Origin: an uncultured Selenomonadales bacterium
Lineage (GTDB): Bacteria; Bacillota; Negativicutes; Acidaminococcales; Acidaminococcaceae
Length of the DNA: 64,000 nucleotides
Reading direction: 5' to 3'
Assembly (NCBI GenBank): GCA_900315345.1
Contig: OMYP01000004.1
Location: forward strand, 33,922 to 97,921
Shown here: positions 18,677 to 63,137 of the stretch, piece by piece
Layout of the letters: each line of letters begins with the position of its first letter
Numbering within the stretch: the first letter of the stretch is position 1
Position numbers and translations under genes: made by a program
The notes under the pieces: model-generated
What the model was told of the DNA's origin: nothing
Seen by the model: only the letters and a program-made list of their open reading frames with translations
Database searches by the model: none

Positions 18677-18701
18677 TAGTCACAAGTTAATATTTTTATT
18701 T

Positions 18702-19028
18702 GGCTGTGAAGAGAAGAGTACGCAGAGGAAAATGCCACAGAGAGCTTTCGGTTTGGTGCAAGAAAGCGCAGGGAACTTTGCCGAAGATGGCCTTGGAGCC
18801 GGCTGGTCGAAGTAATTAAGACCGCCCGGGCGCACCCGTTACAGTGCTGGGGTATTCAAGGAGAAGTTCCCGCGTGCCCGAGAAGCTAATCTGATAAATT
18901 TATTTTTGCTGCTCGCGGTATCAGGGGAAAGAACCCGCGTACCCGAGGAGGCCGGACGTGTGAGCGTCCGGTGAATATGGGTGGTAACACGATGCCTTCG
19001 TCCCATTTGGGGCGGAGGCGTTTTTTAT
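18702..19028 (+). ncRNA. T-box riboswitch, Met-specific
   Basis: AG box (agagag), GGTGNRA motif (ggtgcaa), specifier codon ATG at 18787-18789, T-box aatatgggTGGTaacacg at 18974-18991, terminator gccttcgtccc...ggggcggaggcgtttttt. Sits upstream of metA. Confidence 0.9.
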
Positions 19029-39938: not shown

Positions 39939-41441
39939 TCAGTCGTCTTCGTATTTATCCGGGAAGAACAGCTTCAGGGTCTCCATGTCCGGCATCTTTC
40001 CCATGGCGTTGCCGATGAAGAAGAATATCAGGGAGGTGGTGATACCGATGGTGATCTGGTGCAGGGAGAATACCTTGAAGCCCAGGGCCATGGTCACGCA
40101 GTAGGCTACTACGCCGCCGAACATGGCGCAGATGGCGCCGGTGCTGTTGGCTTTATGCCAGAACAGGCCGAAGATCATCACCCAGAAGAAAGCGGTTTCC
40201 AGACCGCCGAAGGCGAACATGTTGATCTTCCAGATAACGGAAGGAGGCGCAATGGAGATCAGGTAGATGCCAAAGCCCAGAAGGATAGTGAAGATCATAC
40301 TTAACCGTTTTACACCGTCGTTACTTAAGGTCTTGCCGCTCTTTTCCAGATGGCGCATGTACACGTCTTTGATGATGGAGGAAGAAGAGGTCAGCAGCAA
40401 GGAGGAAACGGTGGAGATGGTTGCCGCAATGGGCCCGATGATGACTACGCCGGCCCAGAAGGGGCTCATGACGCTGATGATGGTACGGGGCATAATGTTA
40501 TCCACGCTGCCGCCGTAAGCCGCCAGATCCGGATTGGTAAGGACGCCCTTGCACAGAACGCCGACCCAGGTAGCGATGATGGTCACTACGCCGATGACGA
40601 TGGTGCCGATGATAATAGCCTGCCGCAGGGCTTTGGTGTCCTTATAGCTGATGCTGCGGACAACGGACTGGGGCAGGGCCAGGGTGCAGACGCCAACCAG
40701 CAGCCACTGGCTGATATACAGGGAAATGGGCATCTTGCCCCGGGACAGGGGCTCCAGCATGGCCGGGTCGTTAGCCCGGAAGTGGGCCATGATGGCGCTG
40801 TAACCGCCGGCCTTGTCCAGGAGGCAGTAGAACAGGATCCCCATGCCGATCATCATGGCGATGGCGCAGATGGCGTCGGTGATGGCTACGCCTTTAAAAC
40901 CGCCGATGGTGGTGTAGATGACTACGATGATGCCGAACATGGTAAGGCCGGTCATGTAGGAATAACCGGTAACCGCTTCGAAAAGTTTGGCCGCCCCTAC
41001 GAACTGGGCTACCATGGTGGCGCAGAAGAAAGCCACGATGAAGATGGCCGCCATATTGGCAAGGGCGTCGGATTTATACCGGGCCCGGATAATGTCGATA
41101 ACCGTGACGGCGTCAATATCTTTTGCTATAAGTGAAATCTTTTTGCCGAAGACCCCCATGACAAGGAAAATAACCACCATCTGCACGATGGCCATGTACA
41201 GCCAGCCGTAGCCAATCTGCCAGGCCACGCCGGGGCCGCCTACGAAGGTGGACACGCTGGAGTAGGTGGCAACAGTGGTCATAGCCAGGACGAAACCTCC
41301 CAGGGAACGGCCGCCGATAAAATAGTCCTTAACAAAGTTAGAGGAGCGGGCTTCGCTGGACTGCTGCTGTACCCAGTAGCTGATGTAAAGCAAAGCGGCA
41401 AGAAATAACAGTGCCGGAGCCAGGTTCAGAAAATTTTCCAT
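39939..41441 (-). CDS. panF: Sodium:pantothenate symporter (SSS family)
   Basis: YFIGGRSLGGFVLAMT..ATY.S.STFVGGPG, GLTMFG..V..YTTIGG and AATISTVSSLLL. Paired with a YhdT-like gene, as in the known yhdT-panF arrangement. Confidence 0.8.
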   Translation of the reverse strand: MENFLNLAPALLFLAALLYISYWVQQQSSEARSSNFVKDYFIGGRSLGGFVLAMTTVATYSSVSTFVGGPGVAWQIGYGWLYMAIVQMVVIFLVMGVFGKKISLIAKDIDAVTVIDIIRARYKSDALANMAAIFIVAFFCATMVAQFVGAAKLFEAVTGYSYMTGLTMFGIIVVIYTTIGGFKGVAITDAICAIAMMIGMGILFYCLLDKAGGYSAIMAHFRANDPAMLEPLSRGKMPISLYISQWLLVGVCTLALPQSVVRSISYKDTKALRQAIIIGTIVIGVVTIIATWVGVLCKGVLTNPDLAAYGGSVDNIMPRTIISVMSPFWAGVVIIGPIAATISTVSSLLLTSSSSIIKDVYMRHLEKSGKTLSNDGVKRLSMIFTILLGFGIYLISIAPPSVIWKINMFAFGGLETAFFWVMIFGLFWHKANSTGAICAMFGGVVAYCVTMALGFKVFSLHQITIGITTSLIFFFIGNAMGKMPDMETLKLFFPDKYEDD

Positions 41442-41701
41442 TATTTATGGCCTCCTTCCGCTGCGGTGTCGTCTTCCACGTCCTTGATAACGTAATTGGC
41501 CAACCACCAGGCTACCACTACGGCAAAGAGCCAGGATACGATGCAGCCGCCGATGACCCAGATGGGTGTGTCAAAGATGACGATGTCCGAACCGGACAGC
41601 CCAAAACCTGCCAGGATCCAGAAAAGGATGACGGCGATGGTTGCCAGTACGGTAGTTTTGGCTTCCCGGTTGGCCTGACGGAATTTTTCACTGCGTTTCA
41701 T
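41441..41701 (-). CDS. yhdT: YhdT-like (DUF997) small membrane protein
   Basis: 86 aa with two hydrophobic segments, KFRQANREA..T and TPIWV..GC. Its stop overlaps the panF start. Confidence 0.8.
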   Translation of the reverse strand: MKRSEKFRQANREAKTTVLATIAVILFWILAGFGLSGSDIVIFDTPIWVIGGCIVSWLFAVVVAWWLANYVIKDVEDDTAAEGGHK

Positions 41702-41782
41702 TGTGATACGTTCCTCCCTTGATTAACAACGAATATTTTTATTAAAGATTGCAACTTGTGATTGCATTTACAAAAATTGTTG

Positions 41783-41977
41783 AAGAAAAAATATCGCACA
41801 CCCGGAGACGGATGCGCGGTTATGTTTTGCTATTGCGTCCCGTCCCGGTCAGGGAAACTGTTCCGTTTCTTTGGTGACAGTTCCCTACAGATCCAAGCGA
41901 TATCAGACTGTATTGTTGTGTGACGATTTCGGTTTTCCGGTAAAACTCTGGGATGCCTTCCGGTCCTCTTAATGTCG
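41783..41977 (-). ncRNA. Structured attenuator leader upstream of yhdT-panF (family unassigned)
   Basis: Promoter TTGCAT-17-TATTAT, then several hairpins, a terminator (41818-41795 plus T-rich tail) and a competing antiterminator pairing. Confidence 0.55.
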
Positions 41978-42162
41978 GAAGTATAATATCATACATTAAT
42001 ATAGAATGCAATAATATAATATGGAATATTTATGGTTTTTCTTTGAAAATTTTGTGACTGAATATAGAGTAAATTCCGATTTTGACATGCTAACCTTGTT
42101 ATATTAAAATTAATATTATAATACATCCAGCGAAGTTTCAGTATTTGGAAAGGATAAAAGTG

Positions 42163-43308
42163 ATGAATACAATTACTATAAATGAAGCGCGTCTGAAACA
42201 AACTTTTATTGAACTGGTCGGCGTACCCTGTCCCAGCTGCAATGAAAAACAGGAAGCGGAGCTTCTGGTGAAAAAGTTGCAGGAACTGGGCTTGGAAACG
42301 CAGGTTGACCGGGCCGGGGAGCAGTGCGGCGGCACTACGGGAAATGTTTGGGGATTCCTGAAAGGAAACGTGCCGGGGGCAAAGCGGTTGTTTTTTGAAG
42401 CCCACATGGACAGCGTAACGCCCACCACGGGAACCCATGTCATAGAAAAGGACGGCGTGCTGTATTCCGATGGCACTACCACCCTGGGCGGCGACGATAA
42501 AAGCGGTGTGGCGGCGGTGCTGGAAGCCATACAATGCATTATTGAAAACGATCTGCCCCACGGGGATATCCAGGCGTGCTTTACCATTGCGGAAGAGACA
42601 GGAAGCTATGGCATTCGCTACATGGATCCTGCGTGGATTAAGGCGGATGCAGGCTACTGTATGGACTGCGGCGGTCATCCCGGGGCCATCTTCAACGCGT
42701 CCCCCAAAGCCATTAACCTGAAGCTGACGGTGAAAGGCAAGAGCGCCCATGCCGGGCTGGAACCGGAGAAAGGAATCAACGCCATCATGCTGGCGGCAGA
42801 GGCGCTGCACGCACTGCCGGCTTACGGAAGGCTGGATGGGGAAACCACCTTGAGTGTGGATATGGTCGATGGCGGGCTGGCGTCCAACATTGTGCCGGAA
42901 ACATGCGAAGTTGTTATTGACATGCGCTGCCCTGATGAGGAAAAGCTGGAAAATCTGAAAAACGAAACCGTAGAAATATTCCGTAAAACTGTGGAAGCCA
43001 AAGGCGGAACGATAGAAGTGACGGTGAAAGATGTGGCGCCTGGCGTCAATCTCAACACAGACCATGCAACTGTAAAGCTGGCTGCATCGGCGGCGGAAAA
43101 GTTAGGATTCCCTGTCAGCACTGGCTTCACCGGCGGCTGCAGTGACGCCAACTTCTTGTGCGGTATGGGCCTGCCCACAGTATTGCTGGCGACCGGCATG
43201 GACAAGATCCATACAACGGAAGAATGCCTGGCTCTGGAAGATTTGAACAATGCAGCCCGCTGGGTGCTGGGGATTGTGAGAGAAGCGGCAGAACGGAAAT
43301 CATCATGA
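42163..43308 (+). CDS. M20/M25/M40 metallopeptidase (peptidase T-like)
   Basis: EAHMDSV, TLGGDDKSG, AEETG, GKSAHAGLEPEKGINAI, GCSDAN and HTTEE. Confidence 0.9.
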   Translation: MNTITINEARLKQTFIELVGVPCPSCNEKQEAELLVKKLQELGLETQVDRAGEQCGGTTGNVWGFLKGNVPGAKRLFFEAHMDSVTPTTGTHVIEKDGVLYSDGTTTLGGDDKSGVAAVLEAIQCIIENDLPHGDIQACFTIAEETGSYGIRYMDPAWIKADAGYCMDCGGHPGAIFNASPKAINLKLTVKGKSAHAGLEPEKGINAIMLAAEALHALPAYGRLDGETTLSVDMVDGGLASNIVPETCEVVIDMRCPDEEKLENLKNETVEIFRKTVEAKGGTIEVTVKDVAPGVNLNTDHATVKLAASAAEKLGFPVSTGFTGGCSDANFLCGMGLPTVLLATGMDKIHTTEECLALEDLNNAARWVLGIVREAAERKSS

Positions 43309-62906: not shown

Positions 62907-62983
62907 GGCCCGGTGGTTCAGTTGGTTAGAATGCCGCCCTGTCACGGCGGAGGTCACGAGTTCGAGTCTCGTCCGGGTCGCCA
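62907..62983 (+). tRNA. tRNA-Asp (GTC)
   Basis: Canonical cloverleaf, anticodon arm ccgcc-ctGTCac-ggcgg, CCA end. Confidence 0.96.
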
Positions 62984-62984
62984 T

Positions 62985-63060
62985 GCGGAAATAGCTCAGT
63001 TGGTAGAGCACAACCTTGCCAAGGTTGGGGTCGCGAGTTCGAGTCTCGTTTTCCGCTCCA
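62985..63060 (+). tRNA. tRNA-Gly (GCC)
   Basis: Anticodon arm caacc-ttGCCaa-ggttg, CCA end. Confidence 0.96.
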
Positions 63061-63061
63061 C

Positions 63062-63137
<76 letters not shown>

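Follow-up and report, generated by a model that had tools for sequence, protein, structure and literature searches.

The minus-strand leader of the yhdT-panF operon in the window (the whole 64,000-nt stretch of DNA analyzed here) is, as judged by homology, a tandem pan-motif RNA, that is, a member of an already catalogued family rather than a new riboswitch class. Our main reading of the locus, to which we assign a probability of about 0.7, is that this RNA is fused to an intrinsic-terminator platform and attenuates pantothenate uptake through yhdT-panF. Conservation supports the OFF-type terminator/antiterminator attenuator of the original prediction; we infer the switching direction and that an effector exists. 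The pan motif was described in 2010 (Weinberg et al., Genome Biol 11:R31; PMC2864571) and has been an orphan RNA since. The novelty here is modest and comprises a pan motif preceding an uptake gene, the tolerance of its loops toward insertions, and one relative that lacks the attenuator.

Promoter, leader, and operon

A stretch of 460 nt separates yhdT from a divergent PepT-like peptidase gene (42163-43308, plus strand; TIGR01883, 299.7 bits); on the minus strand it carries a promoter followed by a structured leader and a terminator. The promoter TTGCAT-17-TATTAT had been predicted from the sequence and is both present in the window and conserved across orthologues: the -35 hexamer TTGCAT (42006..42011, minus strand) is invariant in the orthologous leaders that keep this region, and the extended -10 element TGATATTAT (41983..41991, minus strand), consisting of TATTAT with an upstream TG and separated from the hexamer by a 17-nt spacer, follows the pattern TGnTAnnAT in orthologues. 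A strict sigma-70 scan did not list this promoter because its -35 hexamer matches the consensus at 3 of 6 positions. The leader length of approximately 275 nt also stands, with the yhdT ATG at 41701 as its end, and the entire leader is more stable than its shuffled versions (z = -3.4 for folding against shuffles). We dropped the idea of a leader peptide, as the sole open reading frame that spans this stretch (41820-42011; 63 aa, TTG start) opens ahead of the -10 element. On the opposite strand, a near-consensus sigma-70 promoter (TTGACA-17-TAAAAT, 42082-42110, 11 of 12 matches) is directed toward the PepT-like peptidase gene.

Profile searches bear out the prediction of a pantothenate importer operon. 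The first gene (41441..41701, minus strand) encodes a YhdT-like DUF997 protein of 86 aa (Pfam PF06196, 60.3 bits), and the second (39939..41441, minus strand) encodes PanF, a sodium/pantothenate symporter of 500 aa (NCBIfam TIGR02119, 467.6 bits against a cut-off of 328); of 80 related loci, 78 have yhdT adjoining panF. The PanF protein shares 95-98% identity with its counterparts in Succiniclasticum ruminis DSM 9236 and in rumen Acidaminococcaceae metagenome-assembled genomes, and the DNA and RNA runs containing the window sequence are bovine and sheep gut samples; from its sequence, the host is a Succiniclasticum-type rumen bacterium. We take Succiniclasticum and the Acidaminococcaceae to be Negativicutes within the Bacillota.

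Assignment to the pan motif family

At gathering thresholds, an Rfam search of the whole window returned no match in the leader. In a permissive Rfam search of positions 41600-42250 (651 nt), the best match was the pan motif RF01749, which aligned over the full model (1-92) at 41962-41836 on the minus strand with 25.2 bits (E = 0.047), below the RF01749 gathering score of 36.2 bits; the other matches in this search were chance-level hits to snoR29 and U5 (E = 3-4.5). Neither a T-box nor a SAM-I, TPP, FMN, lysine, cobalamin, or other cis-regulator match was found in the leader with Rfam, in agreement with the earlier observation that it resembles none of the first 6 classes. The original prediction had nonetheless placed the leader in no recognized family, while proposing an Rfam check that included the pan motif. 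That check is positive, and the absence of a family is contradicted both by the top match and by orthologues that pass the gathering score.

The window copy scores low because a 39-nt hairpin is inserted into the apical loop of its hairpin 2. Among the orthologous leaders, here designated by L numbers, insert-free copies exceed the gathering score of the pan model (39.7 bits in L009, 38.6 in L006, and 36.9 in L002), and 4 more fall just under it (35.3, 35.0, 33.3, and 28.7 bits); the leader of the S. ruminis type strain scores 28.7 bits, and the insert-bearing leaders of L014, L032, and L001 score too low to be listed. The window element is orthologous to qualifying pan RNAs and is thus a pan motif pushed below the threshold by a loop insertion. 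Since the gathering score is a scoring threshold and not a structural feature, we file the element as a pan member through orthology. The Rfam pan model overlooks insert-bearing copies and copies with a weak hairpin 1, including that of the S. ruminis type strain, and the pan regulon is therefore under-annotated.

The structural features of the leader are those of the family. By definition, each pan hairpin has a stem broken by 2 conserved bulged A residues (PMC2864571), and both hairpins of the leader fit this pattern with zero mismatches; a pattern scan of both strands of the window (128 kb) found 3 such zero-mismatch hairpins, 2 of which are the adjacent pair in the leader. A 37-nt linker separates the two tandem units (41962-41938 and 41900-41840), and the host falls within the range of the family (Firmicutes, Chloroflexi, or delta-proteobacteria); Bacillus subtilis, too, has a pan motif of its own. 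The conserved pan hairpin-2 sequence YnGCYUGGAUC ... GACCGRGACRG is matched by UCGCUUGGAUC...GACCGGGACGG, and the gut-metagenome seed members BABF01000941 and BAAV01003081 have exactly the same hairpin 2 arms, UCGCUUGGAUC and GACCGGGACG, and are flanked, like the window element, by a GCGCAU...GUGCGC-U(n) terminator (PMC2864571, Additional files 4, 5). The leader accordingly shares with RF01749 the tandem bulged-A hairpins, a variable linker of about 35 nt, a terminator, a Bacillota host, and a connection to the pantothenate pathway. It differs in that it precedes yhdT-panF instead of panB, panC, or panD, in the 39-nt structured insertion in the hairpin 2 loop, and in its hairpin 1, which is rich in G-U and A-U pairs and deviates from the pan consensus GGnnnGUAUC...GAACnnnACC.

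Architecture and conservation of the leader

Conservation was assessed in 11 species-level genomes of the S. ruminis clade with yhdT-panF, 10 of which have, at this position, a leader that can be aligned; the structure statistics were derived from an 11-sequence leader alignment. In this alignment, the pan hairpins and terminator are 96.1% paired, compared to 25-49% with slid partners, and RNAalifold, run unguided, recovered both pan hairpins and the terminator. Comparative analysis thus indicates that the leader, its promoter, its terminator, and the competing antiterminator described below are real and conserved in 10 related Succiniclasticum genomes.

Hairpin 1 (41938..41962, minus strand; CGGAAGGC-A-UC CCA GA-GUUUU-A-CCG) corresponds to Rfam model positions 1-28 and has its bulged A residues at 41954 and 41941. 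Its pairing across the 11 orthologues is 93.6% and includes a single compensatory pair (U-A in 3, C-G in 5); the hairpin is weak, at about -4 to -5 kcal/mol, and L001, L008, and L032 have imperfect versions of it. Hairpin 2 (41840..41900, minus strand; UCGCUUGG-A-UC ... GA-CCGGG-A-CGG) corresponds to model positions 60-88, has its bulged A residues at 41892 and 41843, and reaches about -7 kcal/mol in its short-loop form. It is 100% paired and invariant in the 11 orthologues and so contributes no covariation. Invariance extends to all 4 bulged A residues (41954, 41941, 41892, and 41843). Covariation inside the Succiniclasticum set amounts to the single pair in hairpin 1, and its shuffle control is marginal. 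Of the homologues and covariation called for by the original prediction, conserved structure was found in 10 relatives, but with just that one compensatory pair. Within-clade covariation being weak, the stronger evidence is orthology to an Rfam family for which covariation was established by its authors.

The linker between the hairpins (41901..41937, minus strand) is variable except for AGUCUGAUA (41909-41901), immediately 5' of hairpin 2, which is nearly invariant in the 11 orthologues (one substitution, in L006). RNAalifold also pairs the GUCU of the linker with the GGAC of the 3' tail, both sides of which are invariant; this pairing would lengthen hairpin 2 and cover the antiterminator strand. 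Orthologues diverge freely in the remainder of the linker, in the apical loops of both hairpins, and downstream of the terminator. The apical loops of pan hairpins tolerate insertions of 16 to about 166 nt with the stems and bulged A residues unchanged. The smallest of these is a 16-nt insertion in the hairpin 1 loop of L014. In the window, the apical loop of hairpin 2 carries 39 nt (41851..41889, minus strand) that form a hairpin of their own (GGGAACUGU / ACAGUUUCCC), and the corresponding insertions measure 37 nt in L014, 38 nt in L032, and about 166 nt in L001. The insertion is absent from about 6 of the 10 aligned orthologues (L002 and L004-L009 are those named), in which the loop is 6 nt. 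Its presence is polymorphic at the strain level, even among genomes whose PanF is 95-98% identical to that of the window. Rumen metatranscriptome contigs include both forms, the insert-free ones joining 41850 to 41886-41890 with a CGCAAA loop in place of the insert.

One relative, L003 (UBA2453), keeps the promoter (TTGCATTCT...TGATAATAT) and has lost the pan hairpins and terminator, leaving a leader of about 45 nt (L003:2440-3000); approximately 5 tandem copies of an 11-nt TTCTCCGACAC-like unit lie just upstream of its promoter. Together, the natural variants delineate a minimal core, with invariant stems and 4 bulged A residues, expandable loops, and one attenuator-less relative.

Terminator, antiterminator, and proposed switch

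The 10-bp terminator with a T-rich tail that had been read from the sequence was found by a terminator scan and by RNAalifold and is conserved. It occupies 41783..41818 on the minus strand, with the stem at 41818-41795, a 4-nt loop, and the U-rich tail AUAUUUUUUCUU, and is 94.5% paired across the 11 orthologues, the one-sided changes preserving pairing. The alternative pairing joins an antiterminator 5' strand, GACGGGACGC (41835..41844, minus strand), which takes in the 3' bulged A of hairpin 2 and overlaps its 4 basal pairs, to an antiterminator 3' strand, GCGCAUCCGUC (41807..41817, minus strand), which is the terminator 5' arm. It is 98% paired in the 11 orthologues, compared to 31-64% with a slid partner, in mostly invariant sequence. 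When folding is ended before the terminator 3' arm, the minimum free energy (MFE) structure contains the antiterminator in 9 of 10 orthologues and in the seed BABF01000941, and in L009 the antiterminator fold requires that the hairpin 2 5' arm be blocked. In these truncated folds, the antiterminator forms at the cost of the basal pairs of hairpin 2. The antiterminator of the original prediction (41844-41835 with 41817-41807), mutually exclusive with the terminator, thus holds across the clade. Its advantage over the full hairpin 2 at the decision point is only 0.4-5.4 kcal/mol, and with so small a gap between the ON and OFF states and lone hairpins this weak, the system looks poised. As modeled, the leader would qualify as a transcription attenuator at the sequence level, with a leader terminator and a mutually exclusive pairing that involves the sensor. 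Rumen metatranscriptome data at the locus consist of assembler contigs from mixed strains with possible DNA carry-over, one of which spans the promoter.

We propose the following course of events. Transcription would start about 7 nt past the extended -10 element, and the two weak hairpins (41962-41938 and 41900-41840), with bulged A residues five base pairs apart in each, would form. The last ten nucleotides of the hairpin 2 3' strand plus tail (41844-41835) could alternatively pair with the terminator 5' arm (41817-41807). Without effector, the antiterminator would be slightly favored at the decision point, and RNA polymerase would read into yhdT-panF. An effector reporting pantothenate or CoA sufficiency would clamp the base of hairpin 2, around its 3' bulged A, and block the antiterminator, upon which the terminator (41818-41795) would form and yhdT-panF would be switched off.

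Two other views of this leader were weighed against the tandem pan attenuator. The original prediction envisaged a new riboswitch class, in which a basal helix of gcatccc (41956-41950) with gggacgc (41841-41835) closes a ligand-sensing domain of 3 hairpins, and we regard this as very improbable. In the window itself the model has some appeal, as the basal pairing makes 6 of 7 pairs and the full-length MFE fold contains the tacag-tctga/ttgga-ctgta hairpin. Across the orthologues, however, pairing of the basal helix drops to 59.7%, covariation is absent, and one position is never paired; moreover, 2 of the 3 inner hairpins need the 39-nt insertion that the majority of aligned relatives lack: the ctgta strand of the tacag-tctga/ttgga-ctgta hairpin lies inside it (41889-41851), and the gggaactgt/acagtttccc hairpin, although real, is the insertion itself. 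The third, gtttt/aaaac, has 78% pairing and shares sequence with the 3' strand of pan hairpin 1, which is conserved. The multi-hairpin domain is therefore unconserved, RNAalifold giving two pan hairpins and the terminator instead, and the region matches a known family.

Alternatively, the leader could be a relic, with decaying hairpins and a terminator that acts independently of any signal, either to dampen expression constitutively or to end a short non-coding transcript. The weakness of hairpin 1 and its imperfections in 3 relatives fit such decay, and some relatives do without the element altogether, L003 having the promoter without the leader and other Succiniclasticum species having short leaders. 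Against decay, the stems, the 4 bulged A residues, and the antiterminator have been kept while the linker, loops, and post-terminator region diverged, and the antiterminator complementarity is found family-wide, so that we consider a relic improbable, if less so than the closed three-hairpin domain.

The tandem pan attenuator has parallels among well-studied systems. In the PyrR-controlled pyr attenuators of Bacillus subtilis, an anti-antiterminator, an antiterminator, and a terminator are layered such that stabilization of the upstream hairpin leads to termination and end-product repression. The three-layer logic proposed for the pan leader is alike, but PyrR sites have a different sequence and structure, the leader has no PyrR match in Rfam, and the binding protein and co-effector are known for PyrR sites. 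In terminator-coupled OFF riboswitches such as S-box/SAM-I, as in the pan leader, the antiterminator makes use of the sensor helix 3' strand and the terminator lies about 20 nt downstream. Their aptamers are complex, with multiple helices, and have proven ligands, whereas the putative sensor of the pan leader is just two simple hairpins.

Expression platform and gene context across the family

To place the leader within the family, we gathered 120 metagenome loci by a hairpin-2 pattern scan of contigs; 5 of the 14 checked pass the Rfam pan threshold. A terminator-like hairpin lies within 110 nt in 69 of the 120 pan-type loci, and in those 69 complementarity between the hairpin 2 3' strand and the 5' arm of the terminator-like hairpin is strongly enriched over shuffles (mean z = -1.7; 45% beat at least 95% of shuffles). 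Use of the hairpin 2 3' strand as the antiterminator strand thus appears to be common among terminator-coupled pan RNAs, and the shared strand provides a concrete, testable model of the expression platform.

The genes downstream of the 120 metagenome loci encode PanB or PanC (clusters of 28 and 14), a DUF2520 Rossmann protein (23), peptidase S58 (8), and PanD (3), and blastp and tblastn searches detected neither PanF nor YhdT downstream of any of them. Conversely, no pan-type hairpin was found upstream of panF in 70 more distant genomes, including other Succiniclasticum species, Phascolarctobacterium, Lachnospiraceae, Coriobacteriia, and others, using a sequence-and-structure pattern, a structure-only pattern, and Rfam; the five further Succiniclasticum species among these panF loci have short plain leaders. 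With no pan-panF pairing in the 120 metagenome loci or at the other panF loci among the 80 genomes, the gene context is unusual, and the pan-panF link appears, within this sample, to be confined to one S. ruminis-like clade. It lies outside the family definition (panB, panC, and panD) in involving uptake rather than synthesis, within the same vitamin B5 pathway. Homologues of PanB, PanD, DUF2520, and peptidase S58 were absent from the 64-kb window, and neither the window nor the DNA flanking the 80 genome loci contained pantothenate biosynthesis genes. In the literature searched, we encountered no pan-panF link; what turned up on the motif was its 2010 description and two transcriptome studies that list it upstream of panB.

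In Escherichia coli, the yhdT-panF pair sits in the accBC-yhdT-panF-prmA region and has the same order, with the gene for the small DUF997 membrane protein followed by that for the PanF symporter. We know of no pan-type RNA leader at the E. coli yhdT-panF pair. The pan leader is a point of difference, being restricted to the S. ruminis-like clade among the 80 loci examined.

Several further arrangements were observed in the metagenome loci. In soil and sediment metagenomes (L081, L102, L123, L156, L165, L181, and similar loci), a single pan-like hairpin covers the terminal Pro-Leu-Gly-Ser codons of a deoxynucleoside-kinase gene (PF01712, 140 bits) directly before panB/panC; those of L123 and L165 score under the pan gathering score in Rfam. 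A single sub-threshold pan-like hairpin also lies upstream of ECF-transporter genes in L084 (hairpin at 224-249, oriented) and L137 (13236-13258). The L084 genes are ecfA, ecfA', and ecfT (TIGR04520, 370 bits, above the cut-off), and the first gene of L137 scores 308 bits against the TIGR04520 cut-off of 315; no S-component gene was seen near the ECF genes in the DNA examined. These ECF-adjacent hairpins may represent a second link between pan RNAs and uptake. Finally, peptidase S58 (DmpA-like; PF03576, 184.6 bits) is the first downstream gene in L085, L104, L109, L118, L146, L168, L196, and L200, and in pan-controlled operons it could be an aminopeptidase that supplies beta-alanine.

Nature of the effector

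The occurrence of the same RNA before the importer operon and before biosynthetic operons argues for a signal of product sufficiency and not of precursor supply. To our knowledge, no riboswitch for pantothenate or CoA has been validated, the riboswitch reviews searched make no mention of either, and the literature searched after 2010 reports no effector of the pan motif. As the effector, a dimeric RNA-binding protein seems slightly likelier to us than a directly bound metabolite of the CoA pathway, although we would put it somewhat short of even odds.

The same attenuator could also work without a protein, if the tandem bulged-A hairpins jointly formed one pocket for a small molecule such as pantothenate, 4'-phosphopantothenate, (phospho)pantetheine, CoA, or acyl-CoA. 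We hold this riboswitch reading only tentatively and consider it rather unlikely. Pan RNAs are found across several phyla and in many environments, invariably alongside pantothenate genes, and the operons (with PanB, PanC, PanD, DUF2520, and peptidase S58 downstream) include no conserved regulator gene; arrival before a new gene, panF, in one clade would be easy for a self-contained sensor, and the energy gap between the ON and OFF states is small enough for ligand binding to bridge. On the other hand, the structure is very simple, its loops are variable and tolerate insertions, and the post-2010 literature searched offers no ligand. In-line probing of a single-hairpin Geobacter pan RNA revealed no change with 1 mM pantothenate, CoA, or beta-alanine (PMC2864571, Additional file 1), and the discoverers of the motif favored a dimeric RNA-binding protein because the pan structure is both simple and tandem (PMC2864571). 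Under the riboswitch reading, control of an importer on top of biosynthesis would narrow the ligand to the product side, namely, pantothenate, 4'-phosphopantothenate, phosphopantetheine, or CoA, and the RNA would be the first riboswitch for the universal CoA coenzyme family.

Other structured RNAs

Apart from the yhdT-panF leader, the plus strand of the window carries a T-box leader (18697-19008; 95.5 bits against a gathering score of 93) and a cluster of three tRNA genes (62907-63134; Rfam tRNA, 65.9-70.5 bits). Known riboregulators were also detected outside panF leaders in unrelated genomes, including an FMN riboswitch (L031:4169-4305; 107.8 bits), a THF riboswitch (L067:1982-2076; 75.5 bits), and a T-box (L147:207-456; 105 bits).
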